From an uncultured Gemmatimonadaceae bacterium (GTDB lineage: Bacteria; Gemmatimonadota; Gemmatimonadetes; Gemmatimonadales; Gemmatimonadaceae): a DNA stretch of 64,000 nucleotides. The translations under genes and the position numbers were made by a program. How positions within the stretch are numbered: the stretch's first letter is position 1; every line of letters begins with the position of its first letter. Under the pieces are notes generated by a model. That model ran no database searches. It was not told the origin of the DNA and saw nothing but the letters and a program-made list of their open reading frames with translations. Shown here one piece after another: positions 3,272 through 60,317 of this stretch. The stretch spans positions 160,001 to 224,000 of the forward strand of contig CAWBOC010000009.1 in NCBI GenBank assembly GCA_963790305.1, written 5' to 3'.

Positions 3272-3310
3272 AGATGTCAGAGGTCAGACGTCAGATTTCA
3301 GAATTCAGAG
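3272..3310. repeat. Left arm: tandem NNTCAGA heptamers flanking the four-helix-bundle gene
   Basis: agat-gtcagag-gtcagac-gtcagat-ttcagaa-ttcagag; imperfect inverted match to 3741-3780. Confidence 0.9.
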
Positions 3311-3688
3311 GGCGCCAGTGGAGACTTGCTGTCGTTTCTCGCGTGAATGGCTTTGAGCAGACCGGTCAGCATGCGTTTGACCTCGCGAGTGTTCCGATCG
3401 TAGGGTGGCGTAGCGGTCACCCGACAGGTAACCGAGATCGCGTGACAGCAATAGGTGATACTCGAGTTCAATCGCAGACCCGAGCGCTATCTTGATGAAG
3501 CGCGCTAGTTCAGCCTGCGATGCGCGTCCGCATCCCTCGACAATGTTCGCGCTGACGGACACGGCAGCGCGCCTTGCCTGCGTGGCAAGACCCTTATCGC
3601 GACGGAGCGCGCTCGACGACTCTCGGTAGACCTGAAGCGTGAGGGCGTGCGCCTTCCTCCACACGAGCAAGCGCTGAAAGTCGATCAT
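3298..3688 (-). CDS. Four-helix bundle protein (23S rRNA IVP / Avd-like family), one frameshift near 3390
   Basis: MIDFQRLLVWRKAHALTLQVY...QARRAAVSVSANIVEGCGR...FIKIALGSAIELEYHLLLSRDLGYL. The family-typical ending REVKRMLTGLLKAI continues in a shifted frame to TGA at 3298-3300. Confidence 0.9.
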
Positions 3689-3740
3689 GCTCGATGAGAG
3701 CAGTTGCGCTTCCATCGGACGACGCAGACATCCTGGTGCA

Positions 3741-3780
3741 CTCTGAAATCTGACATTCTGTATTCTGACGTCTGACATCT
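3741..3780. repeat. Right arm: tandem TCTGANN heptamers, inverted relative to 3272-3310
   Basis: ctctgaaatctgacattctgtattctgacgtctgacatct; reverse complement is agatgtcagacgtcagaatacagaatgtcagatttcagag. Confidence 0.9.
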
Positions 3781-3802
3781 TTGCCGTTCACAACGAACCC
3801 AA

Positions 3803-4903
3803 ATGCTGAAGCTCGGAATCGTCGGCCTCCCCAACGTCGGAAAATCCACGCTGTTCAACGCTCTAACGGCGGCCGCCGCCCCCGCGGAGAACTACCCGTT
3901 CTGCACCGTCGACCCCAACGTCGGCATCGTCGAGGTCCCCGACCCCCGCCTCGGCAAGCTCGCCGAGATCGTCAAGCCGAACCGCACCGTCCCGGCCGTC
4001 GTGCAGTTCGTCGACATTGCAGGACTCGTAAAGGGCGCGGCGCAGGGGGAGGGGCTCGGCAACAAGTTCCTCGCGAACATCCGGGAGACGGACGCCATCG
4101 TGCACGTGGTGCGGTGCTTCGAGGACCCCGATGTGCTGCACGTCATGGGCTCCGTGGACCCGGTGCGCGACCGCGAAGTCATCGAGTTCGAGTTGGCGCT
4201 CGCCGACCTCGCATCGGTCGAGAAGCGGCTCGATCGCGTGCAGCGTGCGGCGCGGGCCGCGGAAAAGGAAGCCCTCACCGAGCTGCCGGTGATCGAGCGC
4301 GCCCACAAGCTCCTTTCCGAGGGGCGCGGGCTGTGGGAGGCGCGCCTGACGAGCGAGGAGCTTGCGCTGCTCGCGCCGCTAGGGCTGTTGACGGTGAAGC
4401 CGGTGCTGTACGCGGCCAACGTCGGCGATGCCGAGCTCGCCGGCGACGAAGGGCCGCACCTCCGCGCGCTGCGCGAGGCCGTGGCGCGCAGCGGGGAGCA
4501 CGCCGAGGTCGTTCCCTTCTCCGCGAAGATCGAAGCCGAGCTGCGTCAGCTGCCGCCCGAGGACCGCGCCGACTTTCTCGCGTCGTTAGGGCTGGAGGAG
4601 GCCGGTCTCGACCGCGTCATCCACGCCGGCTACCACCTCCTCGGTCTGCAGACGTATTTCACCGCCGGCGAGCAGGAAGTGCGCGCGTGGACGATCCATC
4701 GCGGTGACACGGCGCCCCGCGCGGCCGGCGTGATCCATACCGATTTCGAGCGAGGGTTCATCCGCGCGGAGACGGCGGGCTACGACGACTTCGTGTCTAC
4801 CGGAGGCTGGAAGGGGGCAAAGGAGCGCGGAATCGTGCGGTCCGAGGGAAAGGAGTACGTCGTCCGCGACGGCGACGTGATGCTCTTCCGCTTCAACGTC
4901 TAG
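3803..4903 (+). CDS. ychF: Redox-regulated ATPase YchF
   Basis: GIVGLPNVGKSTLFNALT, ENYPFCT, DIAGLVKGA; TGS end GKEYVVRDGDVMLFRFNV. Confidence 0.97.
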   Translation: MLKLGIVGLPNVGKSTLFNALTAAAAPAENYPFCTVDPNVGIVEVPDPRLGKLAEIVKPNRTVPAVVQFVDIAGLVKGAAQGEGLGNKFLANIRETDAIVHVVRCFEDPDVLHVMGSVDPVRDREVIEFELALADLASVEKRLDRVQRAARAAEKEALTELPVIERAHKLLSEGRGLWEARLTSEELALLAPLGLLTVKPVLYAANVGDAELAGDEGPHLRALREAVARSGEHAEVVPFSAKIEAELRQLPPEDRADFLASLGLEEAGLDRVIHAGYHLLGLQTYFTAGEQEVRAWTIHRGDTAPRAAGVIHTDFERGFIRAETAGYDDFVSTGGWKGAKERGIVRSEGKEYVVRDGDVMLFRFNV

Positions 4904-4954
4904 CCAGTAGCCGGCGCCTCACGACCTCGCTACATTTCTCAGCTCACAACTGAC

Positions 4955-5010
4955 ACCCTCCTCCTGCTCCGGCAACCAGCGGGGGGCGGCCATTACGACC
5001 AAAGGGAGGC
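4955..5010 (+). promoter_or_regulatory. Probable S6:S18 ribosomal-protein leader RNA
   Basis: ccctcctcctgctc...gaccaaagggagg directly upstream of rpsF: an anti-SD CCCTCC that can pair with the GGGAGG SD, and a CCR motif just before the SD, as in the known S6:S18 leader. Confidence 0.65.
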
Positions 5011-5018
5011 TTGCCACT

Positions 5019-5381
5019 GTGACCCGCCAGTACGAAGCGGTCTACATCTTCGACTCCACGCTCGAAGACACCGCAATCAACGACAAGATCTCACGCTTTC
5101 ACGGTCTCCTCGCCGCGACCGGCGATGTCGCCGTCGACCATTGGGGACGCCGCCAGCTCGCGTATCCCATCGGGCAGAAGGAAAACGGCTACTACGCCAT
5201 CGCGCGCTTCGAGGCGGAGCCCGCGAAGCTCCCCGAATACGAGCGCGCGCTCAAGCTCGATGACGGCGTCGTGCGCTATCTCATCACACTGCACGAGCAC
5301 GAGGTCGGAGCGCCGGCGATCGAGCCGGGAAGCGAGATCGGCCTTCGTCGCCGCGATGACGACGAGGAGGACGAAGAATGA
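5019..5381 (+). CDS. rpsF: 30S ribosomal protein S6
   Basis: YEAVYIF...[10 protein letters not shown]...VVRYLI with acidic tail; GTG start after an SD. Confidence 0.95.
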
Positions 5382-5605
5382 TGCGCCGACCCCAGAAGGC
5401 CTGCCCGTTCTGCGAATCGCGCATTCGCTACGTGGACTACAAGGATGACCGCACGCTTGGCCGCTTCATCACCGACCACGGCAAGATTCTGCCGAGCCGG
5501 TTGAGCGGAATGTGCGCGCGCCATCAGCGGCAGCTGTCGACGGCAATCAAACGGGCACGCTATCTCGCTCTGATTCCGTACATCAAGGGCCACCACCAGA
5601 CCTGA
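5378..5605 (+). CDS. rpsR: 30S ribosomal protein S18
   Basis: CPFC...VDYKD...[34 protein letters not shown]. Confidence 0.97.
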
Positions 5606-5607
5606 GC

Positions 5608-6657
5608 ATGGCCGACGGCCTTGCGCCGGCGCCGCGCGAGCGAGGGTGGGCGCGTCTCGCCTTTGCTCTCGCGGCGTTCTTGTTGGTCCCACTCTTCCCG
5701 GCCGTGCGCGCGGTGCTCCCGGTGGAGCACACGCTCATACTGCTCGTTCCCACCATCGCCGTCTGCTTCCTCCTCGGCTGGTGGGCCGGCGGACGGTTGT
5801 CGCTGGCGCTGGTGTGGCTGGCGTTCGCAGCGTGGGTGCTCGCGCCAGGATCCCCCGACGGTCGGTGGCTCGTACTACGATCTGGCTCGGGCGTGGGGGC
5901 TGCTCCTCGCCGGGGCGTTCGGTGTGACGTGCATCCTCGGCAAACCAGGGCCCTTCTTCACGCGCGTGCTCTCGGCGATCGGCCTGGCGCTGCTCGTTGG
6001 GCTCGCTCATGGGTTGGCGGGGCGCACGTCGTTTCGTCGTGTCGAACGCGTGCTCGATGAGCAATACGAAGTACGCAATCGCCAATCGGTGGAGGCGCTC
6101 GGCATATCGCTGCGCAGCGTGGCCGACCGCGTGCCATCGATGCGTGACGTCATGACGAGCGAGACAGTGGATCAAACCGCCTTCGAGCTCAACCGCTTGT
6201 CGGAGGGCGCCTCGCCGTTGTTCCCTGCCCTGCTCGCGCTCGAGTCGCTCGTCGTGTGCGCGCTGGCGTGGACGTTGTATCACCGCCTCGTCGCGCGCCC
6301 GTATCGGCCCGCCGCTGGCGGCGCTGCGGGAGTTTCGCTTTCACGACCACCTGGCCTGGGGCCTGATCGTCGGGCTCACCCTCGTGCTGCTGCCGGCGTT
6401 CGGCTCACTCGCAAGGCTCGGACAGAACCTGGTATTGTTCTTTGGTATGTTGTACGCGTTGCGCGGTCTTGGCGTGCTCGACAGCTTCGTTCGACGCAGT
6501 GCCGCGCTCGTGGCGATCGCCGCGGTGATCGCGATCCTCAATCCTCGTCCCTACGCTGCCCTCGCTGGCGCTCGCCGTGATGCTGGCGCTGTTCGCCGTG
6601 CTGGGTGTGAGCGATGCGTGGGGAGACTGGCGGCGACGCCTGCGCGCCGCATCCTGA
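5608..6657 (+). CDS. DUF2232/YybS-like membrane protein, broken by about three frameshifts
   Basis: Hydrophobic segments spread over several frames (MADGLAPAP..., YYDLARAWGLLL..., FRFHDHLAWGLIVG..., LGVSDAWGDWRRRLRAAS*). The position between rpsR and rplI is typical. Confidence 0.7.
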
Positions 6658-6689
6658 CCTCGTTCCACTGCACTACCGGAGCCCTTCTC

Positions 6690-7133
6690 ATGGAAATCAT
6701 TCTTCGCCAATCGGTCGAGAACCTCGGCAAGCCCGGTGACATCGTGAAGGTGTCGCCCGGGTACGCCCGCAACTACCTCCTTCCCCGCGGTCTCGCGTAC
6801 GAGGCGACGCCCGGCAACCGCAAGCGCATCGCGATGGAAAAGGCGCGGCTCGAGGCGGCCGAGGCGGAGCGCATCAAGGCGGCGCAGTCGCTCGCCGAGC
6901 GCCTGGAGAGCGTGCAGCTCACCTTCTCGGCCCGCGTCGGCGACGAGGAGAAGCTGTTCGGCTCGGTGACGACGGCCGACATCGCCCAGCAGCTCGAGGC
7001 ACAGGGCTTCGACATCGAGAAGCGGCAGATCGACCTGCACGAGCCGATCAAGTCGCTCGGCGTCTACAAGATCCCGGTGCGCCTGCACGCCGAGGTGAAG
7101 CCCGAGATCAAGGTGTGGGTGATCAAGCAGTAG
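6690..7133 (+). CDS. rplI: 50S ribosomal protein L9
   Basis: MEIILRQSVENLGKPGDIVKVSPGYARNYLLP...KLFGSVT...PIKSLG; true start is the ATG at 6690. Confidence 0.97.
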   Translation: MEIILRQSVENLGKPGDIVKVSPGYARNYLLPRGLAYEATPGNRKRIAMEKARLEAAEAERIKAAQSLAERLESVQLTFSARVGDEEKLFGSVTTADIAQQLEAQGFDIEKRQIDLHEPIKSLGVYKIPVRLHAEVKPEIKVWVIKQ

Positions 7134-7231
7134 GTGCGTCGAGGTGCTCGAGGTAGGTCGAGGTGGCTCGAGGTGACGACCGGTCGTCACCTTCGAGCAC
7201 CTCGAGCACCTCGAGCACCTCGAGCACCTCG
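7132..7231. repeat. Inverted array of 9-mer GAGGTGCTC/GAGCACCTC repeats around a perfect 22-bp palindrome
   Basis: Left arm of degenerate aggtgctcg units, centre aggtgacgaccggtcgtcacct (7171-7192), right arm (tcgagcacc)x4. Confidence 0.9.
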
Positions 7232-7335
7232 GGCATTGGCATACCCAATGCCGCGTCCATACCGGAACAAAGACCTGTCGCCGACGGTACCACCGCCGAC
7301 GCAGTGCGTTCATCAGATTCCTGAACGGTCTCCGA

Positions 7336-10974: not shown

Positions 10975-10977
10975 CCT

Positions 10978-11120
10978 AGGGGTCAGGAGTCAGGAGTCAG
11001 GGGTCAGGGGTGGAAAGGCGCGGCAGCTCCGCTGCCGCGCTCATTATGAAGGGGCCGCTCGCGCGTAGCGCGGCGGCCCCCTTTCCACCCCTGACCCCTG
11101 ACTCCTGACTCCTGATCCCT
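10978..11120. repeat. Inverted TCAGG(A/G)G heptamer arms enclosing two hairpins
   Basis: 10978-11018 versus 11080-11120 is a 41-bp inverted repeat with one mismatch. Internal stems at 11018-11040 and 11051-11080. Confidence 0.93.
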
Positions 11121-17911: not shown

Positions 17912-18678
17912 TGCGCCTGACGACGGTCGGCACGGGAACCGTGACGCCATCCCCGTCGCGCGTTTGCGCTGGCCATCTCCTGACGACGGGCTCCGTGTCG
18001 ATCCTCCTCGACTGCGGGAGCGGCGTCGTGCACCGGTTGGCGCGTGCCGGCGTCGACTGGATGGCGATCACGCACGTCGCGATCACGCACTTTCACGCCG
18101 ACCACCTGAGCGATCTCGCCTTCCTGATATTCGCCTGGCGCCATGGCGCGGCGCAGCCACGAACGGCTCCGGTCGACATCATCGGTCCCCCCGGCACCGA
18201 TGCGCTGCTGACACGATTTGCCGACGCGTTCGGCGGCTGGGTTCGAGAACCGGGGTATCCGGTGCGCGTGAGCGAGACTTCTCCTGGCAGTGTCGTCGAT
18301 CTCAGCGGTGAGGTACGGCTGAGCGCGTTCAAGGTTCCGCACACGGAGGAAAGCGTGGCCTATGACCTCGTGCACGACGGGCGACGCGTGGTCTACACGG
18401 GCGACACGGGATTCGACGAGGGACTTGGACGGTGGGCGGCGGGATGCGATCTTCTCCTTGCGGAGTGCTCGCTGCCGGACGACCAGGAAATGGCGATTCA
18501 CCTCACGCCGCGGCGCTGTGGCGAGCTCGCGGCGGTCGCGCGGCCCCGAACGCTGGTGCTCACGCACTTCTACCCGCCCGTGGAGCAGGTGGACATCCGC
18601 GGTATCGTGCATGAGCGGTTCGACGGAACGCTCGTGCTCGCGGAAGACGGGTGGTCCATGGAGATCGAGGAGCGGTAA
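17911..18678 (+). CDS. MBL-fold metallohydrolase (RNase Z-like)
   Basis: GTG..P, LLDCG, THFHADH, YTGDT and LTHFYP motifs; ATG at 17911. Confidence 0.88.
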
Positions 18679-19731
18679 TGCTCGTTGTGATGGAGCACGG
18701 GGCCACGCCCGAGCAGGTCGCGGGCGTCGTCAGGCTGATCGAGGAGCTCGGCTACCAGGCTCGCCCGATGCCTGGCTCCCAGCGCACGGCCATCGGGCTC
18801 GTCGGCAACGATGGGCGCGTCGAGGGATCGCGGTTCGAGACGCTGCCCGGCGTCGCGCAGGTCATTCACGTCACCAAGCCGTACAAGCAGGCCTCTCGCG
18901 AATGGCGTCCCGAGAACACCATCGTCACCATCGCGCCGGGCGTGCACGTCGGCGGCGACGATATCACACTCATTGCTGGACCGTGCTCGGTGGAGTCGGA
19001 GGAGCAGATCGTCGCCGCGGCGCGCGCCGTACGCGCGGCGGGAGCGTCATGTCTCCGCGGCGGGGCCTTCAAGCCGCGCAGCTCCCCGTACTCGTTTCAG
19101 GGACTTGGGAAGCGCGGCCTCGAGATGCTCGCGCTCGCGAAACGCGAGACCGGTCTCGCGATCGTCACCGAAGCGATGGATGACGAAGGCGCCGAGCTCG
19201 TCGCCGAGTACGCCGACTGCATCCAGATCGGCGCGCGCAACATGCAGAACTACTCGCTGCTGCGTACCGTCGGACGGTTAGGCAGGCCGGTGCTGCTCAA
19301 GCGGGGGCTGGCAGCGACGATCACCGATCTCCTCCTGAGCGCCGAGTACATCCTCAGCCGAAGGAAACGAGCAGGTCATCCTCTGCGAGCGCGGCGTGCG
19401 CAGCTTCGATACCGCCGCGCGGAACATGCTCGACCTGACCGCGATTCCCATCGTGCACAAGCTGTCGCACCTGCCGATTCTCGCCGATCCCAGCCACGGA
19501 ACGGGACTTCGGGACAAGGTCATTCCGATGGCGCGCGCCGCGGTCGCCGCGGGCGCGGATGGCATCCTCGTCGAGGTGCACCCGAACCCCGAGCGCGCGC
19601 TGTCCGACGGAGCGCAATCGCTCTTCCCGGAGCAGTTCGCGCAGCTGGTGGGGGAGCTTCGCGCGATCGCGACCGCCATTGGCCGCACCGTAACGCCAGT
19701 GCCCGGAACCTCTGCAGCCGGAGTGGCGTAG
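18678..19731 (+). CDS. aroF: DAHP synthase (type I-beta, N-terminal regulatory domain), frameshift near 19357
   Basis: [40 protein letters not shown]; continues as [11 protein letters not shown]...DPSHGTG...EVHPNP in the next frame. Confidence 0.92.
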
Positions 19732-19737
19732 AACTAC

Positions 19738-19801
19738 AACGAGGAATGAGGCAACGACGAAGTTGTGATGTGGGTCCACTTCCTCGCTCCTCATTCACGT
19801 T
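19738..19801. repeat. Short degenerate inverted heptamer element (AA(C/T)GAGG)
   Basis: aacgagg-aatgagg-caacgacgaagt ... acttcctcg-ctcctca-ttcacgtt. Confidence 0.65.
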
Positions 19802-23669: not shown

Positions 23670-24019
23670 CCGAGGGTAATGATCGGACTCTGCGCGCCCT
23701 TTTTGATCCCGTCGAGTATCCATTCGTTCGCGCGCATCATGAGCTTGTCGAAGTTCTCCTGCGCGACGGCGACTCCCTGATACACCCGGTGGCTCTGCAC
23801 CTTGCCCAGCAGCTCATCGAGCTTCCGTTCCATCTCCTCCGTGGGCTGCTCACCGCGCGCAATCATGGACTGTGCGTCCTCGCGGAGCTTCTCGAGCTCG
23901 CGCAAGAGCGCCACGGCCTCCCGGTCGGCGGAGAGCTCGTCGTTGGCGCGCTTTACCGCTTTGTATTCCGGGCTCTGCCCGATCAGGCGGCCGAGCTCTT
24001 TTGCTTTGTCTTCGAGCAT
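23666..24019 (-). CDS. YlbF/YmcA-family helical protein
   Basis: KAKELGRLIGQSPEYKA...D.EA..L pattern, all-helical, 117 aa. Confidence 0.7.
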   Translation of the reverse strand: MLEDKAKELGRLIGQSPEYKAVKRANDELSADREAVALLRELEKLREDAQSMIARGEQPTEEMERKLDELLGKVQSHRVYQGVAVAQENFDKLMMRANEWILDGIKKGAQSPIITLG

Positions 24020-24042
24020 CTAGGACCTCAAAGTGATAGACC

Positions 24043-27018: not shown

Positions 27019-27140
27019 GGGGTCAGGAGTCAGGAGTCAGCGATCAGGGGTGTCAGGGTGAAGGTTCGAGGGACGGAAGGCGCGATTCCTGAAACCGATT
27101 CCTGACACCCCCTGATCCCAGACTCCTGACTCCTGACCCC
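27019..27140. repeat. Inverted TCAGGAG heptamer arms (same unit as 10978-11120)
   Basis: gggg-tcaggag-tcaggag-tcagcga-tcagggg-tgtcagg ... cctgaca-ccccctga-tcccaga-ctcctga-ctcctga-cccc. Confidence 0.92.
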
Positions 27141-30129: not shown

Positions 30130-30160
30130 GTCTTTCTCAGGAGATCAACTTCCGAAGACG

Positions 30161-40810: not shown

Positions 40811-40862
40811 TCTGAAAAGCTAGTCGGGCGGGCAGAGCCGCTCAACGACTGGGAAGGTGTTT

Positions 40863-41363
40863 CTATCGATAATTGCCGAACTTCAGCTCGACACCAAAGT
40901 CCTGTCCGCGCAGCAGGTTCATCACCGTCTGGAGCTCGTCCTTCGAGGCCGAGCTCACACGCACCTGCTCCCCCTGAATGGCGGCGGTGACCTTTTTCAT
41001 CTTCGCTTCCTTGATGGCGGCCACGACTTTTTTCGACGTGTCGCCATCGAGCGACATCTTGAGCGCGATCTCACGACGCACGGTGTCGTTGCCGGCGGGT
41101 TTCACCTCTCCGATGTCGAGATTCTTCACCGGCACCCCGCGCTTGATGAGCTTCCCCTGCAGGATGTCCATGAGCGCGCGCATCTTGTAATCGTCGTCGG
41201 CGACGAGGACGAGCTTGCTCGCGGCGCGCTGAAAGTCGATGCTCGCCTTGGATCCCTTGAAGTCGTACCGCTGCGCGATCTCCTTCTGCGCCTGATTGAT
41301 CGCGTTATCGACTTCCTGGAGGTCGACGCCTGTCGTTATGTCGAACGAGTTCGTTTGAGCCAT
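40863..41363 (-). CDS. yajQ: YajQ family nucleotide/c-di-GMP-binding protein
   Basis: MAQTNSFDI...QEVDNAINQ..KEI.QRYDFKGS...IQGEQVRV...DELQ...FGNYR. Confidence 0.93.
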   Translation of the reverse strand: MAQTNSFDITTGVDLQEVDNAINQAQKEIAQRYDFKGSKASIDFQRAASKLVLVADDDYKMRALMDILQGKLIKRGVPVKNLDIGEVKPAGNDTVRREIALKMSLDGDTSKKVVAAIKEAKMKKVTAAIQGEQVRVSSASKDELQTVMNLLRGQDFGVELKFGNYR

Positions 41364-41406: not shown

Positions 41407-41612
41407 CTGGCATCCAGGTTCAAAGTTGGGACGCGGATTACGCGCATGCAGCGGAAACGGCCGGATCGCTCCTGGCGCAGAGAACTCTCCTCGCGCAGGA
41501 AAAAAACACCTGCTATTTGCTCCTGTAGAGGAGAGATCGCGACACAAGGAGTGATCCGCCAAATCCGCTGCATCCGTCTAATCCGCGTCCCAACTTTGAA
41601 CCTGGATGCCAG
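41407..41612. repeat. 206-bp palindromic (MITE-like) element with perfect 34-bp terminal inverted repeats
   Basis: 41407-41440 ctggcatccaggttcaaagttgggacgcggatta is the exact reverse complement of 41579-41612. Imperfect pairing continues nearly to the centre, with 9-mer CGCGGATTA-like units. Confidence 0.92.
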
Positions 41613-41637: not shown

Positions 41638-43551
41638 TCAGGGCACCTGCGGCTGCACCACTTTCGCCACCCAGAAACCGGTGTTGATGTCGGACACCAT
41701 GATGTGGCCGCGATGAGGAATCGCGCTCCACGCCAGCGCCTGATTCGGGCGATAGCCATCGAGCGCGCCCGTATATACCGAGCCGATCACCCGGCCCTGC
41801 TCTCGCAGCTCGCCGCGAAGATCGCCGCTGATATCCAGCACGCGCACCCCGCCGTCATAGGCGCCGATGTAGAGCAGGTTGTCCTCCACCCAGAGGTTGT
41901 GCGCGCCAAACTCGATCGGATCGTATTGCGCCACCTTGCGCAGGTTGCGGATGTCGCTCGCATCGACGACGTGCACGATTCCGCGCGTCGGAAGGCGCTC
42001 GCGGCTCGAGATATCGAATGCGCCGTAGAGCGACTCGTCGGCGATGAAGATGTACTTCCCGGCCGGATATACGGCGTGCGTTCCGGCGACGAAGTCGGGA
42101 GGATATAGCACGCTGTGATCGTAGACGAATCGCGACACCTCCTTTGGCGCCGTAATCGTTCCACCCGCCATGCCATTGCCGACGTCGAGGATGATCAGGC
42201 CGTCCCGCCAATAGGCGAGATACGCGAGGCCATCGCGAACGTAGACGTCGTGCAGCATTCGCGATCCGCGATTCGGCGTCTCCCATCGGGTTATCTGCTT
42301 CGGCTGCTTCGGGTCGCTGAAGTCGATGATGCGCAGGGAGCCAGTGGCGTCATCGGTCGCGAATACATACCGCTTCCAGATGAACGCGCTATGGACGCCG
42401 CCCGTCAGGGTCTCGGTGAACTCCGAGAGGATCTTCGGATGGCGAGGATCGGTGGCGTCGAAGAACACGAGGCCGTTGCGACGATTCGACGCCCCTTCGC
42501 GCGTCAGCACCCCCAGCCGGCCATCCTCGGTGAGGCTCACGTCATTGACGAGATGCGCGTCGACCACGAGCGAATCGGTGAGCTTCGGCGCGGATGGATC
42601 GGTGATGTCGAACACGTACACGCGGGAGCTGATCGTCGAGACGTAGGCCACGTCGCCGAACGGCCACACCTCGGCCCCCATCGTCCCGGCCGGGAGTGGC
42701 ACGTGCGCGACAGACGTTAGGCGCCGCGGATCGGACCGCGGTACGACCTGCACCGACGTTGCGGCGGCCACGGACCCCGCGCTCGCGGTCACCGTGTACA
42801 CGCCGGGATCCTCGGCGACGAAGTACCCCTCGTGGTCGACCTGTCCCCCAGGACCGCTCACGCTCCACCGCACCGGAACGGCGCTGACTGCTGCGCCGCG
42901 CGCGTCGGCCGTGACAGCCGTGAGCTTCACCACGTCGCCCGTGCGGGCCGGCCGCGTCACGGGCTCGAGGCGCACGGTACGCACGGGATTCGCGCGCACG
43001 GCGATCTCCGTGGTGGCGCTCAGCGCTCCCGACTCGGCGACGATGGTCGCGCGCCCGGGGGCCTTGGCGGTGACGAGGCCATTCGGGCTCACCTCCGCGA
43101 TTGCTGGCGTGCGTGAGCGCCACCGCGCCGACGGAACCTGGACGGCGTCATTCGCGCTCGTCATTCCGCTGACCCCGAGCTGCAGCGTCCCGCCCACGAC
43201 GGCGGAATTGCCTTCGGCACTCTCGATCAGGAGGCGCGCCGGCGGGCGCTGGGCGACGCGCACCGTCGCGCGCCCAGGCCGACCACCCACGATGGCAAAG
43301 ACGTGAATCTCGCCCGGGTGGATGGCCGTGAGCGTGCCGGTGCTATCGATTTGCGCGATGTCGAACGGCGCCGCCGCCCACATGGGAGCCTGGGCTACGG
43401 CGCCGCCTTTGTCATCACGCGCTACGGCTCTGAGCTTGATCGAGGAGCCCACGACCATCGTCGTCTCGGCGGGCGAGACGTCGACGCGAGTAACCGTTTG
43501 GGCGGACAGTGCCAGCGGAACGAGCGTGGCCGCGGCGATGAGGACTCTCAT
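41638..43551 (-). CDS. Secreted protein with Ig-like (Big_2) domains and LVIVD-repeat propeller
   Basis: Signal peptide; WRSRTPAIAEVSPNGLVTA Ig motif; repeated (V/I)xDxSDP..P and GLIILDV blades. Confidence 0.82.
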   Translation of the reverse strand: MRVLIAAATLVPLALSAQTVTRVDVSPAETTMVVGSSIKLRAVARDDKGGAVAQAPMWAAAPFDIAQIDSTGTLTAIHPGEIHVFAIVGGRPGRATVRVAQRPPARLLIESAEGNSAVVGGTLQLGVSGMTSANDAVQVPSARWRSRTPAIAEVSPNGLVTAKAPGRATIVAESGALSATTEIAVRANPVRTVRLEPVTRPARTGDVVKLTAVTADARGAAVSAVPVRWSVSGPGGQVDHEGYFVAEDPGVYTVTASAGSVAAATSVQVVPRSDPRRLTSVAHVPLPAGTMGAEVWPFGDVAYVSTISSRVYVFDITDPSAPKLTDSLVVDAHLVNDVSLTEDGRLGVLTREGASNRRNGLVFFDATDPRHPKILSEFTETLTGGVHSAFIWKRYVFATDDATGSLRIIDFSDPKQPKQITRWETPNRGSRMLHDVYVRDGLAYLAYWRDGLIILDVGNGMAGGTITAPKEVSRFVYDHSVLYPPDFVAGTHAVYPAGKYIFIADESLYGAFDISSRERLPTRGIVHVVDASDIRNLRKVAQYDPIEFGAHNLWVEDNLLYIGAYDGGVRVLDISGDLRGELREQGRVIGSVYTGALDGYRPNQALAWSAIPHRGHIMVSDINTGFWVAKVVQPQVP

Positions 43552-43605
43552 TGCGACTCCTGTACGATGGTGGCTGACAGAAGCTTTTTCGCGGCCCTGC
43601 ATGGG

Positions 43606-45516
43606 TCAAGGGGTCCAGCGATCGTTCGCTCGCATCAAGTCCGGGAAGAGCTTGTCCGGGTCGAGCTCGACACTCACGACGCGGGGGGACGCGGCGACCC
43701 GGGTCGTGTGACGCGTTGCGCCGGAGAGCCACACATCCGCCGGTACCGTCACCCGGTCTTCGCGACCGCCTTCACGCCTGACGAGCAGAATCGCCGGCAT
43801 CGGCGCCCGCTGCCGTCGCTCGATGTCGATCTCCACCGAGTCGCCCACGACGCGCCCGCCGGCGATCGCCAGGTCCATGGTGGAGGTCTCGTAGAACCAC
43901 GTGCGCCAGAACCAGTCGAGTTGCCGGTCGCTCGCGTTCTCGAAGGAATTCCAGAGGTCGTACGGCGTCGGATGCTTGTTTCGCCACCCACGGCCATGGT
44001 CTCTGAATGCGCGCACGAAGGCACTATCGCCGATGACGCCGCGCAGTGATCGGAAGATCGAGACCGGCTTTTCGTAGCTGGCGATGACGTACGCCGCGGC
44101 CGAAGGAAATCTGTCACTGTGAGTCATCAGCGGCGCTTCGACCTCGCCGCCCGCGGCGCGGAGATAGTTCACGAACCCCGTCACCGCGGGATCGCCCGCG
44201 GCAGGGCCGAACTGATCTCGCGCGGCGCGCGTCTCGAAGTAGCTCGCCAGCCCTTCGTCGTACCATGGGTAGCGTTTCTCGTCCGACCCGATCTGCATCG
44301 GGAACCACATGTGCGCGATCTCGTGGGCGATCACGGTGTACAGCTCCTGTGGGTCGGGCACGGCCGCGATCGCGGTCAACATCGGGTACTCCATTCCGTA
44401 GACCGTCGTCTCGACGGCGGTCATGTGCGGATATGGATATGGCCAGATATCGCGCGAGAAGAATTCGACCGAGTGCCTGGCGAAGCGGGCCGACAGCTCC
44501 CACGCGGCCGCGGTCGCCCGAAACATTGTGTGAATGGCGGTCGTGTCTGGGCGGCCGTCGCCGTTAGCGTCCCCAACGACGGCGCGTGTCGCGTCCCACA
44601 ACCATCGATTCGAGGTCCCAAAGGCGAAGTCGCGTACGCCGCGCGCCACGTATCGCCACTCGAGAAGGCCATCCGCATCGGTCCGCGTACGCTCGGCGTC
44701 GCGCCGCCACACGATGTGCACGACGCTGGTGTCGGTGCGCGCGCGCTCGAGACGTGAGAGTGCGGAGTCGCTCAGGACCTCTCGAGGATTCTGAAGCTCG
44801 CCCGTCGCGGTGACGAGCCAGCCGGTGGGTATCGTCAGCCTGACGTCGTAGTCCGCGAAGCCGTAGTAGAACTCGCCGTTGCCGAGATACGGATCGGTCT
44901 GCCAGCCGTTCACGTCGTCGTAGACCGCCACCATGGGATACCACTGCGCGATGAAGAACACCTCCCCGTCCTGACCCATGCGGGGCGCGCTCGCGGGAGG
45001 AACGCGAAAGCCCCACGTGAATCCGAGCTCCACCGAGTCGCCGGGGGCGAGCGGCCGAGCGAGCGGGATCCACCCGATCGTCGCCTGCACGTCGTAGCCT
45101 CCATCCCCACCGCGCGCGAGCTCTCGGCCATCGACCGTCACGCGCTCCAGCCGCAAGCCGCCGGTGAGCGGGACGTTCTCGTTCTTCGGCGAATTCGACG
45201 CGAAAAGATTCTGGAGCAGGTGGACGGCGACACGTCGCAGCGTATCCGGTGAGCGATTGTGATAGCGAATCGTCTCTTCACCCGCGAGCTGCGCGGTCCG
45301 GGGGTCCAGTCGGGCCGAAATGCGGTAGGAAGCCCACTGCTGCCAATACCGAGGACCCGGAGGCCCCGTGTCGGTGCGCGTGCCTCGCGTGATCGCGCGC
45401 GTGAAGGCGGTGTCGGCAGGGATTCCGAGTATGGGCCCACTGACGACGGTCGGCGCGGTCACCGCGCGCGAGCATGCGACAGAGACCAGGAGAAGCAAGA
45501 GAGGGATCGTGCGCAT
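43606..45516 (-). CDS. M1 family metallo-aminopeptidase (lipoprotein)
   Basis: VAC lipobox; GMEYP, HEIAHMWF, W.DEG motifs. Confidence 0.9.
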   Translation of the reverse strand: MRTIPLLLLLVSVACSRAVTAPTVVSGPILGIPADTAFTRAITRGTRTDTGPPGPRYWQQWASYRISARLDPRTAQLAGEETIRYHNRSPDTLRRVAVHLLQNLFASNSPKNENVPLTGGLRLERVTVDGRELARGGDGGYDVQATIGWIPLARPLAPGDSVELGFTWGFRVPPASAPRMGQDGEVFFIAQWYPMVAVYDDVNGWQTDPYLGNGEFYYGFADYDVRLTIPTGWLVTATGELQNPREVLSDSALSRLERARTDTSVVHIVWRRDAERTRTDADGLLEWRYVARGVRDFAFGTSNRWLWDATRAVVGDANGDGRPDTTAIHTMFRATAAAWELSARFARHSVEFFSRDIWPYPYPHMTAVETTVYGMEYPMLTAIAAVPDPQELYTVIAHEIAHMWFPMQIGSDEKRYPWYDEGLASYFETRAARDQFGPAAGDPAVTGFVNYLRAAGGEVEAPLMTHSDRFPSAAAYVIASYEKPVSIFRSLRGVIGDSAFVRAFRDHGRGWRNKHPTPYDLWNSFENASDRQLDWFWRTWFYETSTMDLAIAGGRVVGDSVEIDIERRQRAPMPAILLVRREGGREDRVTVPADVWLSGATRHTTRVAASPRVVSVELDPDKLFPDLMRANDRWTP

Positions 45517-47681: not shown

Positions 47682-47773
47682 AGGTTATCGAGGTGCTCGA
47701 GGTGCGGGGGCTTCCCCCTAGAGCACCTGGAGCACCTGGAGCACCTCGAGCACCTCGAGCACCTCGAGCTCCA
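47682..47773. repeat. Inverted 9-mer GAGCACCT(C/G) array (same unit as 7132-7231)
   Basis: aggttatcg-aggtgctcg-aggtgc, centre gggggcttccccc, then gagcacctg x2 and gagcacctc x3. Confidence 0.88.
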
Positions 47774-47776: not shown

Positions 47777-49277
47777 TCAATCCGGCGTACCAAGGTAGTT
47801 ATCAATCTGCGCTCGCTGGAGCGTCCCCGAGAAATCGACGTAACCCACCTTCGTTTCGGAGTAGAACTCGTAGACCTGCCATCCGCCTTCACGGTGGCCG
47901 TTCCCTGTCTGCTTTACCCCACCGAAGGGCAAATGTGCTTCCGCGCCGATGGTTGGAGCATTGATGTAGGTGATTCCGTTGTCGAGATCGCTCAGCCCCC
48001 GGAAGGCGACCGATACATCGCGGGTGTAGAGGGACGAGGAGAGGCCGTATTTCACCCCGTTGTTGATGCGGAAGGCCTCGTCAGGCGATTCCACGCGAAG
48101 CACCGAGAGCACAGGACCGAAAATCTCCTCCTGCTCGATGCGCATTCCCTGCTCCACTCGCGCGAAGATCGTTGGCTCGAAGAAATGTCCCTTCTCGAGG
48201 CCCTTCCCCGATGCTCGGCGGCCACCCATTAACAGGTCGGCTCCGCCGGCAACGCCAATGTCCACGTAGCGCTCTACCTTCTTCACCGCCGCCTCGTTCA
48301 CGAGAGGGCCGACCTCCGTGCCCTCACGACGCCCGTCGCCCAGCTTGAGCGCCCGCGCGCGCTTCACCAGGCGACTCAGGAAATCATCATGGATACCCGA
48401 CTGGAGAATGAGCCGGCTCGTCGCCGTGCACCGCTGGCCCGTTGTGCCGAACGCTCCCCAGAGCACCCCCTCGAGAGCCAGGTCAGGATCCGCGTCATCG
48501 AGTACGATCATCGCGTTCTTGCCGCCCATCTCGAGCGACAGCCGCTTGTGTAGTCGGCCGCACGTCTCGCCCACGAGGCGCCCCGTTTCCGTCGAGCCCG
48601 TGAACGACACGAGTGAGACCGCCGGATGCTCGACAATGGCGGCACCCACCGCCTCGCCGGTCCCGTGGACGAGCTGGATGACGTCAGGCGGCAGACCCGC
48701 CTCGAGAAGCACCTCAACGAACACCGTCCCCGTGTGCGGGACATCTTCGGCCGGCTTGAACACGACCGCGTTACCGCATAACAGCGCCGGAAAAATCTTC
48801 CAGGTTGGGATGGCCAGGGGAAAGTTGAATGGCGTGATGATGCCGGCCACGCCGATCGGGCGCCGGAAGCTCATCGCCCATTTCTCGCGGAGCTCGCTCG
48901 GGACGGTGTGACCGAACAGGCGCCGGCCCTCGGTCGCCGCGTAGTAGGCGGTGTCGATCCCCTCCTGCACATCCCCGCGCGTTTCGGTGAGCGGCTTGCC
49001 CATTCTCGCGCGTCATGAGGTCGGCGATCTCATCTTTCCGCCTCACGAGAATGTCCCCCGCGCGCCGGATCACGTCCCCACGCGCCGGCGCCGGCGTGCG
49101 ACGCCACCGCTCGAAGCCGCGCTGCGCCGATGCCACCGCCTTGTCCACGTCCGTGCGCGACGACAGGGGAAAGCGTCCGATGAGGTCGCCCGTGTCGGCG
49201 GGATTGACGTTGTCGAAGTATTCGCCGGTCGAAGGCTCGACCCAGGAACCGGCAATGAAGTTCTTAAATAGTTTCAT
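47777..49277 (-). CDS. Aldehyde dehydrogenase family protein, frameshift near 49004
   Basis: NFIAGSW..NPA; ITPFNFP, FTGSTETG, LEMGGKN, GQRCT, EEIFGPV. The expected MTREMGKP is split by one extra base. Confidence 0.92.
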
Positions 49278-49295: not shown

Positions 49296-49364
49296 AATGC
49301 GGACTGCGGACTGCGGACTGCGAATGCCCGCACCATAATCCTCCGCATTCCGGATTCCGCATTC
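49296..49364. repeat. Inverted heptamer A(A/C)TGCGG array
   Basis: aatgcgg-actgcgg-actgcgg-actgcg ... tccgcat-tccggat-tccgcat. Confidence 0.85.
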
Positions 49365-53460: not shown

Positions 53461-53510
53461 GCTTCAACGTAACCGAGCCCCCGCGGCCTGGGGAGGGCGC
53501 TGCCGGACCT

Positions 53511-56313: not shown

Positions 56314-56324
56314 CGCTCCGGAGG

Positions 56325-56780: not shown

Positions 56781-56781
56781 G

Positions 56782-58989
56782 CTAGAACCCGACGGTCGCC
56801 GTGAGGAAGATGGCGCGCGGCGCGGTCACGAAATAATACGGGGTCGTCCCGTCGGTATAGCCGGCCGCATAGAATCGCGCGCTGCCCACGTTCATCACGT
56901 ACAGCGCGACCTCGTGACGCCCGCTCCGCCACGCGAGCCCAGCGTCCGCCAGGTACGCCAATGGCGTCATGAACGCGCGATCGCCCGTGTTCGCCAGGAA
57001 GCTCCGCCCGACGTAGCGACCGGTGACGGACATGGAAAGGACAGGCGTCATCTGCCAGTCGAGCGCGTGATTGAGCAGGACCGCCGGGGTGAGCAACGGC
57101 TCCACATCTCGATATGTGGTACCGGTCGCGTCGTCCCGGTACTCGGCGATGCGGTTGCGGCTGATCGTGGCATTCGCCGACGCGGCGAGCGCGGGCAACG
57201 GACGCCAGGTCACGTCTGCCTCGAGGCCGCGACGATACGACGAGCGGACGTTCTTGCGCAGGGGAAGTCCGATGTAGCTGAGCTCCCCCACTGGGGTGAT
57301 CTCGTTGCGAAATCGCATGTCGAACACGTTCAGGTTCGCCAACAGCGACGTCGTTCGCCAGCGGACGCCAGCCTCGCTGTCGTAGACGCGCTCGGGGCGC
57401 ACGCGCGACAGGGAACCAACGAAATCAATGTTGGTCGTGTCCACATCATCGAAGCCCGCGAACATGTCGTTGCGGGTGGGCTCACGGCCGTTCGACCCGT
57501 AGGACGCATAGAGCGTCGCTTGCCGCGAAAGCTCCCAGGTGATTCCTGCCTTGGGGTTCAGGAACGTCCAGGCAATGCTTCTGCCACCCACGCCGGACCC
57601 CGCGGAGGGCACGTACTCGAACTCCGGGTGCCGCAGCTGAACGTCGCCGTAGAGCGTCGCATCCCCGAGTGCGAGCACGGCTTTCGCGAACGCACTCTGC
57701 TCGCGCTTTCGGCCGGTGTTGTGATAGACGAGTGACTCCAGCGCGGGCCGGATGGCGAGAGAGTGGTCGCGATGGTACGCGCTCGCGTGGGCGCCAATGT
57801 CGAGATCGAACGCTCCTCTGCGCGCGCTCCAGGTGGCGAGCGCGCCAGTCACTCGCGAGGCGAGCTGGAAGTTGTAGAGGTCGGGCGCGATGCGGACGTC
57901 GTAGTCGCCGCCCGCCCAGATCGTGTACGCGGTGGCCTGCATCGCGGCCTGTTCGCCAAGCACGCGGGTCCAGGATGCACTGGCGAAATGCTGCTGGAAG
58001 TCGTCGCGCTCATCCTCGCCCAGCGGGTTGGCACGTGGGTCCTGTTCGAGATCCGCGAGCGGGACCGCCAGATACGCCAGCTCGTTCCGCGATCGGCCAC
58101 CGAACGCGGTGATCTTCACGATGTCGCGGGCGCCGAAATAGGCACCGTTGGTGAAGTACGATTGGCCCGTGTTCCCCGAGTGATGACGATAGCCCTCCGT
58201 GCAATGTGCGGAGGCGCGCACGTACATCGCGAATCGGTCATTCACCCGTCCCGACATCCACTCCGCGCTTCCGCGCGTCGTGCCGAACGAGCCACGTCCG
58301 AGCTGAACCTCGCCGCCACGCTCGGCACTGGCGAGAGCCATCGACTGAAAGTTGATGGCCCCCGCGTACGCCGCGGTGCCGTAAGAGCTCGTACCGACTC
58401 CCCGCTGGATCTGCACCGATTCGAGACTGTTGCCGAAATCGGGAAAGTTCGAGAAGTACACGAACTGGTCCTCGGGATCGTTCAGCGGTACTCCGTCGAG
58501 CGTGATGTTCACCCGAGTGTGGTCTATTCCGCGGAGACGCAGATACGTGTAGTTGGAAAAGCCTCCGGCCTCCGCGTACGACGTCACCGATGGCTGACCG
58601 GTGAGTAGGAGCGGAACGTCCTGCCCCACGTAGCGTCGCTCGACCTCCTCCCGATCCATCGTCCGCTGCGGAATCGGCGCGGCAGCGTCGCCGCGCAGCG
58701 CGGTCACGGTCACGCGCTCGAGGGAGGGCGCCGCGGGCTCGAGCTGGACAATGAGCGTGGTGTCGCTCGCGATAACGTGCTCGACCGTCTGGTATCCGAC
58801 TCGCGCGAAGCGAACGCGCGCAGGTCCGGAAAGCTCGAGGGTGAAGCGGCCCGCTTCGTCGGTCTCGGTGCCGCCCTGTGCAGCGGCCGACGCTACGACG
58901 ACACCGGAGACTGGCTCTCCGGTAACGGCGTCGCGAACCTCGCCACGCACGGTGAGCAACGCGAGCAACAGTGCGAGAAGATACGACAC
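56782..58989 (-). CDS. TonB-dependent receptor
   Basis: N-terminal carboxypeptidase-regulatory-like domain; plug LRGID..RVNITLDGVPLNDPE..VQIQRG; barrel ending in F. Confidence 0.92.
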   Translation of the reverse strand: MSYLLALLLALLTVRGEVRDAVTGEPVSGVVVASAAAQGGTETDEAGRFTLELSGPARVRFARVGYQTVEHVIASDTTLIVQLEPAAPSLERVTVTALRGDAAAPIPQRTMDREEVERRYVGQDVPLLLTGQPSVTSYAEAGGFSNYTYLRLRGIDHTRVNITLDGVPLNDPEDQFVYFSNFPDFGNSLESVQIQRGVGTSSYGTAAYAGAINFQSMALASAERGGEVQLGRGSFGTTRGSAEWMSGRVNDRFAMYVRASAHCTEGYRHHSGNTGQSYFTNGAYFGARDIVKITAFGGRSRNELAYLAVPLADLEQDPRANPLGEDERDDFQQHFASASWTRVLGEQAAMQATAYTIWAGGDYDVRIAPDLYNFQLASRVTGALATWSARRGAFDLDIGAHASAYHRDHSLAIRPALESLVYHNTGRKREQSAFAKAVLALGDATLYGDVQLRHPEFEYVPSAGSGVGGRSIAWTFLNPKAGITWELSRQATLYASYGSNGREPTRNDMFAGFDDVDTTNIDFVGSLSRVRPERVYDSEAGVRWRTTSLLANLNVFDMRFRNEITPVGELSYIGLPLRKNVRSSYRRGLEADVTWRPLPALAASANATISRNRIAEYRDDATGTTYRDVEPLLTPAVLLNHALDWQMTPVLSMSVTGRYVGRSFLANTGDRAFMTPLAYLADAGLAWRSGRHEVALYVMNVGSARFYAAGYTDGTTPYYFVTAPRAIFLTATVGF

Positions 58990-59097
58990 TAGAGTCGGCG
59001 GTTGTCGGAAGTGCGGCTCATCACCGCAATGGGCACGCCACCGTGGTGCGAGAAAGATAATGCTTGCGCCGTTTTCCCGAAGAGAGTGTCACCGCTC

Positions 59098-59637
59098 TCA
59101 ATGCGAGGCCGGAACAACGCGGGACTCGATCGCGGCGATCGCCGCTGCCTCTCGCTCCTCCCAGATCCCGCGCACGACGACGTATTGCGCACGGTATTGC
59201 TCGAGCCGCGCCGTGAACGCGCTCTGGATCTCACGCCGCGCGTGCGGGCGATCGCGCGCCGGATCAGCTACCCATGGCACGTCGATGTCGCACAACAGAT
59301 ACAGCTCGGCGAGGCGCTCGCGCGCTGCTTCTTCTATCCACGGCGGGCATCGACCGTAATAGTGCTCGGCATACACGACGGTGCTGACGAGATCGGTATC
59401 GAGAATCGCGAGCCCTTGTGCTCGGCGAAGGGCGTCGTCCTCGCCGCGCATCTGCCCGCGCGCGATTGCTTCGACGTCCGTCGCATCCAGCGGAGCCCCC
59501 TTCCGCAGCGCGTAATCGCGCGAGAACTCCGGCGACCACACCGTCGCGAAGTGGAGCGCGAGACGCTCGGCCAGCCACGTCTTGCCGGTCGACTCCGACC
59601 CGGTGACCGTCACCCGGCGTACGCGCTCTCGGCTCAC
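59098..59637 (-). CDS. NadR-like P-loop kinase (AAA_28)
   Basis: TGSESTGKT, PEFSRDY, LDTD, DVPWVADP.RD; GTG start overlaps the pnuC stop. Confidence 0.85.
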   Translation of the reverse strand: MSRERVRRVTVTGSESTGKTWLAERLALHFATVWSPEFSRDYALRKGAPLDATDVEAIARGQMRGEDDALRRAQGLAILDTDLVSTVVYAEHYYGRCPPWIEEAARERLAELYLLCDIDVPWVADPARDRPHARREIQSAFTARLEQYRAQYVVVRGIWEEREAAAIAAIESRVVPASH

Positions 59638-60218
59638 GCGAAGGCTGTCTGCGGCGCGGGCTGCTCGCGCAGCAATGCGCGCCACTGTCGCCACCCCACC
59701 ACGGCGAGGATGGTGAACAGGAGGTAGAGTACCGCTGTGGGCCAAAGCGATTTGTAGATGAACATCGCCACGTACGCCGCGTCGGCAACGATCCATACCA
59801 GCCAGCACTCGACGTACTTGCGCGTCATCATGTATTGCGCCACGAGGCTCGCGGCGGTGAGCGCAGAATCGGCGAGGGGAAGTGACGCGTCGGTCGCGCG
59901 GGCGAGCAGCGTCGCCAGCGCCGCGGTACCGCCCGCGAAGGCGAGACCCAACAGGACTATTTCACGCGTGGGTACTCGAGAGACGCGCAGGGTGCCGCGG
60001 TTCGCCCCCCCGTGAAGCCAATGCCACCATCCGTACGCCGCGAGCACGATGTACACGGCTTGAAGCCCCATGTCCGCATAGAGCTTCGCTTCGTAGAAGA
60101 CGAAGATGTAGAGGGTGACATTGATGATGCCCAGCGGCCAGTTCCAGACGTTCTGGCGGGCACTGAGGTAGACCGACGCAACTCCGAACAGGGCCGCAGT
60201 GACTTCGATCGGATCCAT
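59634..60218 (-). CDS. pnuC: PnuC-family vitamin transporter
   Basis: NVWNWPLG, LYAD..LQ, YGWWHW, DS..T..SLVAQY..RKYVECWLVWIVAD. Confidence 0.92.
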   Translation of the reverse strand: MDPIEVTAALFGVASVYLSARQNVWNWPLGIINVTLYIFVFYEAKLYADMGLQAVYIVLAAYGWWHWLHGGANRGTLRVSRVPTREIVLLGLAFAGGTAALATLLARATDASLPLADSALTAASLVAQYMMTRKYVECWLVWIVADAAYVAMFIYKSLWPTAVLYLLFTILAVVGWRQWRALLREQPAPQTAFA

Positions 60219-60273
60219 CCCGGAATGATACGTCGAAGCACGCGCTTCGGAGCCGAACGACAGAAACGCCCGA

Positions 60274-60317
60274 GGTCAGAAATCAGATTTCAGACAAACG
60301 ATCTGAAATCTGAGTTT
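60274..60317. repeat. Minimal inverted NNTCAGA heptamer element (same unit as the four-helix-bundle flanks)
   Basis: ggtcaga-aatcaga-tttcaga-caaacga-tctgaaa-tctgagt-tt. Confidence 0.8.

Follow-up and report, generated by a model that had tools for sequence, protein, structure and literature searches.

Families of hairpin repeats paired with small enclosed genes in a Gemmatimonadaceae genome: candidate transposase-free replicators

Introduction

Nine intergenic hairpins, each built from a tandem-repeat array and its reverse complement, are spread over the 64,000-nt stretch of Gemmatimonadaceae DNA analyzed here (the window), and one of them encloses a gene for a four-helix-bundle protein. The locus raises the question of whether this gene is incidental cargo or takes part in maintaining and spreading the hairpins that resemble its surroundings. 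The original prediction held that gene-bearing and gene-less hairpins belong to one class of small insertion elements. Here, the source genome (G000, 94% complete) was compared with eight congeners (G001-G008) sampled at 0.22-0.46 Mb each.

The nine elements of the window

All nine predicted elements are present as long inverted stems (Table 1), each no more than about 30 nt from a stop codon and between co-oriented genes. Co-orientation describes the window and fails as a genome-wide rule, since convergent gaps are most often filled (148 of 290, versus 53 of 486 divergent gaps). Genome-wide, arms start a median of 3 nt from a stop codon, with a stop within -40..+30 in 323 of 439 cases. The rule that the G/A-richer arm comes first is real (461 of 462 cases genome-wide; left-arm purine content of 54-78% in all nine window elements) but, being the same on both strands by symmetry, it carries no information on the direction of transcription. 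A strict detector recovers only five of the nine elements, and none in eight of eight Markov-shuffled windows, so the genome counts given below are lower bounds. A search of the window against Rfam returned no match. Intrinsic terminators were considered and rejected, as a U-tract follows the stem in only 16 of 238 co-oriented elements and none was found at 3100-4100.

Table 1. Coordinates of the window features, with the state of each gene-less site in the congeners
Feature	Position	Strand	Stem and context	Further observations
Four-helix-bundle gene (PF05635)	3298..3688	-	antisense to hppA and ychF	
Gene-bearing cassette stem	3271-3318/3733-3781		40/48 pairs matched	
Left arm, 7-nt units, family F9/J6	3271..3318	+	begins 6 nt past hppA stop	provides the stop codon of the cargo gene (minus strand)
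Right arm of cassette	3733..3789	+	reverse complement of left arm	terminal motif of the family at its end, 14 nt upstream of ychF start
Gene-less element, 9-nt family F6/J5	7132..7231	none	overlaps rplI stop; stem 7132-7229, 45/46 pairs	different family in all 4 congeners where read
Gene-less element, 7-nt family F3/J1	10978..11120	none	40/41 pairs	spacer found again at many loci, about 90% identity
Decayed gene-less element, J7 type	19738..19801	none	stem 19744-19796, 17/19 pairs	cognate gene of J7 present in congeners, not found in G000
Gene-less element, family F3/J1	27019..27140	none	37/39 pairs	J13-type arms in G002 and G005
Gene-less element, GxxExxY-linked family F7/J11	41407..41612	none	59/66 pairs	J14- or J13-type arms in 4 congeners; G001 empty
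Gene-less element, family F6/J5	47682..47773	none	stem 47682-47764, 22/24 pairs	other arms in 5/5 congeners
Gene-less element, 7-nt, F1/J3 type	49296..49364	none	stem 49296-49363, 19/22 pairs	J7- or J8-type arms in congeners
Short decayed gene-less element, family of the gene-bearing cassette	60274..60318	none	stem 60279-60318, 16/16 pairs	four families among 6 genomes

The spacer of the first element is indeed a four-helix-bundle gene (E=1.2e-27 for its protein against PF05635), with the corrections that it lies antisense to its host genes on the minus strand and that the assembly shows a frameshift in it near 3400, after which the frame ends in a stop at 3305. An 'intact' label given to this gene in a profile-based check is an artefact, because the profile included its own row, and the profile fits the divergent clade poorly, which accounts for several 'broken' labels there. 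The ortholog at the hppA-ychF site is open in seven of the eight congeners, and no sigma-70-type promoter was found for the cargo gene. DNA contigs from four sequencing runs leave the gene uncovered; in three of the runs a different stretch of 120 letters occupies site 7132, and the joints with short sides at 3309-3755 are probably gene-less family members of other loci. No run screened for the window's words reached a fifth. Contigs from four RNA runs, in which excision of the cassette by RNase III would show, belong to relatives and leave the cassette uncovered.

Pairing of genes with repeat families

At least 461 elements were detected in G000 and sorted into 19 computed clusters. Ten genes of the PF05635 (four-helix-bundle) and PF13366 (GxxExxY) families were found, and each of the ten lies within the arms of a different family, a one-gene-per-family pairing with P=5.8e-4 when families are weighted by abundance and 0.044 when they are taken as equally likely. 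Most of the larger families in G000 have a single very small gene as partner, enclosed by the family's own repeat. Only one cargo family had been predicted; GxxExxY is a second, and the element at 41407 is linked to it. This pairing, the GxxExxY cargo and the in-place replacement at conserved sites had all been overlooked by the earlier reader.

The pairing has exceptions. Some congeners carry two J1 or two J4 genes per genome, and families were observed for which no gene was detected (F6, with 21 copies, in G000; J7 in G003 and G004; J10 in G005 and G002). Genome G005 has no GxxExxY match, yet contains many F7-type elements. As assembled, four to five of the ten cassette genes in G000 are frameshifted (the F2 and F4 genes and probably the F1 gene among them), compared with about 0.5 expected among ten genes from the assembly background of about one frameshift per 6-8 kb.

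Arms are short arrays (902 of 922 hold five units or fewer; some congener arms hold more than five), and whole elements including spacers are repeated at many loci, as in 43 of 80 F3 spacers. An arm is nearer to the arm of another element than to its own partner in 356 of 453 cases. Local arm-to-arm correction was rejected as the main force, since an arm's own partner was a better match than every other family member in only 80 of 453 cases.

The predicted enrichment of arms around four-helix-bundle genes is borne out beyond the genus: of 77 related genes drawn from several phyla, 66 have such arms on their flanks, against none of 142 controls. In outgroup genomes without a PF05635 match, 0, 0, 1 and 2 (low-complexity) hits were obtained in 100, 87, 71 and 59 kb, respectively, while gene-rich outgroup genomes, of which just 20 kb each was sampled, gave 2, 0, 0 and 0 hits. 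The cassette proteins are under purifying selection (dN/dS 0.09-0.16 in five of five groups). Fold matches of the G004 ortholog include 2GSC and 2RLD (five chains each), and the fold of Avd is matched with TM 0.78-0.82 (4DWL and 8UB7) at about 10% sequence identity. We know of no catalytic site in the four-helix-bundle fold.

Replacement of elements at conserved sites

Across the congeners, families appear and vanish with their gene, and family presence tracks the cognate gene within the genus apart from the exceptions given above. Family density is 12.8/Mb where the cognate gene is present (2 of 45 cells empty) and 3.0/Mb where it is absent (51 of 81 empty); among these genomes, which are kin, none of 20,000 permutations reached the observed difference, with or without G000.

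The sites themselves persist, but arms and spacer give way to others, in most cases from a related family. Among 1,150 junction comparisons with six congeners, 119 junctions were filled in both genomes, 102 in one and 929 in neither (odds ratio 43), and 77 of the 119 shared sites carry different families in the two genomes. The relative's family had a detected gene in that same genome in only 54 of these 77 swaps. Swaps remained within one protein clade in 43 of 73 cases versus 19.5 expected, and the unit period was kept in 57 of 77 and changed in 20. Spacers at swapped sites were no more alike than controls (0.24 versus 0.25; n=32), which rules out arm-only rewriting as the rule. Twelve copies lie deep within called ORFs, several of them plainly in frame and swapped; for the in-frame copies, the frame was kept in five of five comparisons and the family changed at two of four sites. 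At one in-gene site the spacer has stayed similar, a pattern like that of arm-only conversion.

Cassettes that bear a gene also move between sites and are exchanged for diverged alleles. In a 54-row protein tree, proteins from different sites group by arm family (J4 proteins from four sites, J1 proteins from two), and one site holds three families. At hppA-ychF, cassette identity does not follow flank identity: flanks are 91/94% and the gene 68% identical between G004 and G008, compared with 86/86% and 84% between G004 and G005. Where a congener has a gene-bearing site, a gene-less element stands at the same place in G000. Filled, gene-less and absent states thus all occur at orthologous sites, and this variation supports the original proposal that gene-bearing and gene-less elements are members of one mobile class.

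The original observation that the window shows no transposase also agrees with the genome. Neither a Y1 transposase (PF01797) nor a reverse transcriptase (PF00078) profile match was found in G000; PF01797 matches occur in three of eight congeners, none of ten Y1 loci examined is enclosed by such arms, and a reverse transcriptase was not found in six of eight congeners. Matches between the flanks of the 461 elements equal those of shuffled pairings, giving no sign of a target-site duplication, although old duplications could have decayed.

Proposed mechanism and alternative explanations

The pairing of most larger families with a gene, together with the occurrence of different families at the same sites in related species, suggests that each protein likely maintains and spreads its own family without a transposase. 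On balance, the observations lean towards the cassette being the single gene-bearing member of its hairpin family, with a protein that likely reads its own unit and likely maintains or spreads the family by overwriting hairpins at gene ends. An Avd-like pentamer, an oligomeric state suggested by solved homologues, would bind an arm's 2-5 tandem units, each subunit taking about one, with either extruded DNA or RNA as the substrate. The resident hairpin would then be broken by a structure-specific host nuclease or, in GxxExxY families, by the protein's own PD-(D/E)XK domain, and the gap could be filled by copying the bound or protected cognate element, aided by arm similarity. The protein might either promote this copying or only shield its own family from loss, and the persistence of hairpins at gene 3' ends may benefit the host at the mRNA level.

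A more general reading is offered tentatively, as a possibility that falls short of even chances: Avd-like and GxxExxY proteins may be the sequence-specific drivers of widespread transposase-free replicators, in which a pentamer reading one unit per subunit directs host repair to overwrite the resident hairpin, in a programmable and duplication-free replacement at gene ends. If true, this would give a function to two very common orphan protein families, account for heptamer repeats that have been described in Geobacter, Xanthomonas and cyanobacteria with no cause assigned, and point to a possible origin of 23S intervening sequences and of the DGR protein Avd. It would also supply a natural specificity code, in which one genus offers a dozen pairs of protein and unit with putative binding, and a second system for studying the in-place overwriting of REPIN-like repeats.

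The closeness of arm starts to stop codons, the preference for convergent gaps, the conserved sites and the bias of swaps towards related units would also be expected if the cognate protein acted on RNA, binding gene-end hairpins in transcripts for stabilization, processing or ribosome release, while selection and gene conversion remodeled the sites after each exchange of protein; in Avd itself, all five protomers contact an RNA stem-loop (10.1101/2023.10.23.563531). We consider such RNA-level regulation unlikely. The design is strand-symmetric and shows no excess of G-U over A-C in the mRNA sense (283 versus 248, p=0.14), several in-frame copies deep within ORFs are swapped, whole elements recur with their spacers, and 20 of 77 swaps come with a change of period. 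The lack of a G-U excess, the antisense gene and the in-frame in-gene copies likewise leave without support the original suggestion that long stems in the mRNA loop the cargo out.

Somewhat less probable is a passenger role for the gene, in which host repair at fragile palindromes spreads the hairpins, the gene rides in one copy, and protein-unit covariation stems from linkage and joint horizontal arrival. The missing catalytic partner, the large families with frameshifted genes, the orphan families and the layout common to two unrelated protein families fit this explanation, but purifying selection, the single gene per family in G000 and the arms around related genes in several phyla do not, and families are mostly absent without their gene even though every gene-less copy is a potential template. 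The least probable alternative, which we regard as improbable, involves no movement at all: old hairpins would stay put while slippage and concerted evolution gradually shift their units toward the motif bound by the current protein. Swaps within protein clades, the usual retention of period and the in-gene site with a similar spacer agree with such drift; it is opposed by the loss of spacers at swapped sites, by empty-versus-filled sites, by gene-bearing cassettes at different sites and by arms that are usually nearer to those of other elements than to their own partners.

Relationship to known systems

MITEs and Rickettsia palindromic elements are short non-autonomous palindromes, some of them in frame within genes. 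The present elements differ from these in showing no target-site duplication, in being keyed to genes other than transposases and in being replaced at fixed sites.

The closest parallel is REPIN-RAYT, in which a single-copy gene accompanies each family of about 100-bp extragenic inverted repeats, several systems may occupy one genome, and populations shrink without the gene (10.1101/2021.07.10.451892, 10.1101/2024.10.14.618302); one of these two preprints reports REPIN types that differ in conserved spaces, which its authors read as overwriting. Shared features are the single-copy gene with its own repeat family (ten genes for ten families in G000), a repeat population that follows gene presence within the genus, and conserved extragenic spaces with differing repeat types (77 of 119 shared sites). 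RAYT is an HUH/Y1 transposase, whereas the protein partnered with the present repeats is of the four-helix-bundle or PD-(D/E)XK type. Further differences are that the arms are built from units of 7-10 nt in tandem, that one element carries the gene in its loop, and that cassettes both relocate and are exchanged for diverged alleles.

A PF05635 gene in a short, selfish-looking insert is also found in the ORF-bearing 23S rRNA intervening sequences of Coxiella (S23p; PMC4990558). Unlike those, the cassettes described here lie between protein genes (hppA and ychF in the window) rather than in a 23S rRNA gene, are often antisense and have hundreds of gene-less relatives. The cassette protein shares its fold with the DGR accessory protein Avd, a pentamer of which several protomers read an RNA stem-loop (10.1101/2023.10.23.563531, PMC10053308), whereas the reverse transcriptase of a DGR has no PF00078 counterpart in G000.

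No prior report of the link between gene and repeat was found in the literature searched. The terms 'four helix' and 'intervening' are absent from the main text of PMC4692102, as is 'S23 ribosomal' from PMC2700814, and such neighbors may be listed in the supplements; the portion of PMC4679880 consulted does not mention these proteins. Paired tandem repeats in Geobacter metallireducens (PMC2700814) and heptamer repeats in Xanthomonas and Nostoc (PMC4692102) have been interpreted as IHF/HU sites or G-quadruplexes. As described there, they resemble the present elements in forming arrays of ~3-5 units, often as opposite-strand pairs, near stop codons, and the Geobacter class 3 consensus (PMC2700814) resembles the unit of the elements at 3272 and 60274 when that unit is taken from the opposite strand.

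Elements in the window and the source genome

All nine inverted tandem-repeat elements of the original prediction were found in the window as described, with stems of 16-59 matched pairs and the purine-rich arm on the left in 9/9, as had been claimed. A strict detector, which requires a tandem array and a reverse-complement match, recovered 5/9 of them and 0 in 8 shuffled windows. The first element carries, on the minus strand in the hppA-ychF gap, the four-helix-bundle gene that had been proposed (PF05635 match, E=1.2e-27), with the last helix sitting in a different frame as assembled; the closest named loci of a related protein in a species-collection search include Gemmatimonadales. The assembly frameshift rate is ~1 per 6-8 kb of coding DNA (control pair: none), and an aldehyde dehydrogenase and other genes of the window appear split (47777-49277, 18362-19731, 6303-7133).

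Periods of 7 and 9 predominate among all 523 pairs detected in the source genome (G000; 4.31 Mb, 13 contigs, 94% complete). Spacers of <=200 nt define 462 elements, purine-rich arm first in 461, and automatic clustering of 461 non-overlapping elements gave 19 clusters, 14 with at least six members. By provisional, unvalidated gene calls made in this analysis, elements fill 148/290 convergent, 238/1,287 co-oriented and 53/486 divergent gaps, and 21 lie inside called ORFs. The median distance from arm start to stop codon is 3 nt; arms often overlap the stop, and TAG is enriched beside elements (142/363 vs 1,022/3,957 overall). No target duplication was found at elements of this genome. Intrinsic terminators were considered and rejected, a U-tract following only 16/238 co-oriented elements.

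One gene per hairpin family

Inverted tandem-repeat arms enclose 6/6 PF05635 and 4/4 PF13366 (GxxExxY) genes of G000, one GxxExxY gene at a contig end having a single visible arm. The ten genes fall in ten different hairpin families (F1, F2, F3, F4, F9 and F10 for PF05635; F5, F7, F8 and F13 for PF13366), for which the chance probability is P=5.8e-4 when weighted by abundance and 0.044 with equally likely families, F9 and F12 being merged. F6, F11, F14 and F15 are geneless here, and congeners carry genes within such arms. By eye, 4-5 of the ten cassette genes are frameshifted; the background (28-30 shifts in 174-235 kb of the assembly) predicts about 0.5. At C5:638691-639561 and C5:741580-742381, a gene-less element of the same family directly follows a GxxExxY gene, a layout nearer to that of RAYT loci.

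Gene and family are also coupled in trans. Across all of G000 and 0.22-0.46 Mb samples from six congeners, which are kin rather than independent and whose assemblies break at hairpins, a family has a density of 12.8/Mb where its gene is present vs 3.0/Mb where it is absent, and 2/45 vs 51/81 genome-family cells are empty. J13 and J15 are present only where the genome has their gene. Exceptions to the coupling are J7 in G003 and G004, J10, F6 in G000 and, in G005, F7-type elements despite the absence of any GxxExxY match. In a phylogeny of 54 proteins, from which one row containing an internal stop was excluded, clades track arm family across sites, and four of the families with 9-nt units group in a single clade (support 90/99). 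The partnership between gene and hairpin family is almost certainly real.

Beyond the genus, inverted tandem arms surround 66/77 related genes vs 0/142 shifted controls, purine-first in 61 of the 66; the 77, a non-random sample from several phyla, are those with enough flank among the best 80 hits when the species collection was searched with a single protein. PF05635 occurs in 25 and PF13366 in 18 of 30 relatives, these breadth tallies including the unpublished genome G015, which no conclusion here rests on.

Persistent sites, changing families

At hppA-ychF, gene and arms occur in 9/9 genomes of the genus (the G003 copy internally deleted), and three other genera hold gene-less arrays of different units there. 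The eight gene-less window sites mostly carry an element in five congeners, often of a different family. When junctions of G000 were compared with those of six congeners (1,150 comparisons), the family was the same in 42, different in 77 (swaps), and neither genome was occupied in 929; 48 and 54 junctions were occupied in one genome only, a class in which many of 22 inspected calls were threshold misses. With 4 swaps from an artefact cluster left out, 43/73 fall within clades of cognate proteins (assigned by the analyst from the tree) vs 19.5 expected, though the period changes in 20/77 swaps. Copies within genes kept frame in 5/5 comparisons at four sites, two of which changed family.

In-frame elements within called host ORFs of G000 and length differences in congeners
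Location	Length difference
C10:146893-146980	+15
C13:68142-68213	-3
C5:106968-107098	-9
C9:64860-64922	-6
C9:978890-978950	-6

Gene-bearing cassettes also change place. A gene of type J4 (J, families across the genus) occupies four different sites across five genomes, and at sites that bear a gene in a congener G000 has a same-family gene-less element or remnant (three) or another family (two). Gene identity at hppA-ychF is out of step with flank identity among congeners, suggesting that diverged alleles have replaced one another, although lower codon bias inflates the synonymous distance of the gene. At 8/13 resolved sites of the genus the gene runs antisense to both of its neighbours, and across phyla both neighbours are co-oriented with it in 36/71 (rough ORF rule), so orientation is not fixed.

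Window junctions empty here and filled in at least one congener (4903-5019, 24019-24043, 30129-30161, 40810-40863, 43551-43606, 56780, 58989-59098) are candidates for an insertion assay. Families J1 and J13 have a branched spacer type in common, at different sites (window 10978-11120; L-loci in G002 and in G005), raising the possibility that related families exchange spacers by recombination.

Possible mechanism and known systems

Pairing, co-occurrence, in-place replacement and selection on the protein are established here. Somewhat favoured as their cause is protein-driven replacement, in which the cognate protein would bind its own repeat unit specifically, the resident hairpin would be broken, and the gap would be refilled by templated copying. 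Neither reverse transcriptase nor Y1 transposase was found in G000, and they occur in 2/8 and 3/8 congeners, so the catalytic step would be supplied by the host or by GxxExxY.

An RNA-level role is unlikely to be the main cause; the folding into long mRNA stems originally envisaged was not borne out, G-U pairs not being favoured in the mRNA sense. It is quite improbable that the gene is a passenger: the cassette proteins are under selection (dN/dS = 0.09-0.16), against which stand the frameshifts in 4-5 of the ten genes of G000. Drift of hairpins in place is very unlikely; spacers are not retained at swapped sites (32 of testable length).

As far as its available descriptions go, REPIN-RAYT works alike, with mixed occupancy of conserved spaces, but it is defined by a transposase and the G000 system falls outside that definition. 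The protein family is shared with 23S intervening sequences, as covered in the accessible part of PMC4990558, yet this system is not one; the fold is shared with Avd, but the system is no DGR. The main texts on Geobacter (PMC2700814) and Xanthomonas (PMC4692102), in the portions available, describe similar repeats without PF05635/PF13366 genes, and a literature search, mostly at record level with few subscription papers, found no link between these genes and hairpin repeats.

The intact G004 ortholog has a predicted four-helix fold (pLDDT 96) resembling 2GSC and 2RLD (TM 0.87) and Avd (TM 0.78-0.82), with W10, Q37, S44, N48, E51, G52, S71 and E74 among the residues invariant in 20 aligned rows. 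In the available part of a DGR structure report, all five Avd protomers touch one RNA stem-loop via the same residues (10.1101/2023.10.23.563531). One repeat unit per protein subunit would fit the arms, 902/922 of which have <=5 units.

F7-type sequence is apparently nested within F9-type arms at C7:121230-121565, possibly a replacement intermediate. Spacers of F7-type elements at C12:2462-3892 and C7:4659-6090 contain IS3-like transposase sequence (translation judged by eye), recalling the insertion sequences that adjoin Geobacter class 1 sites.
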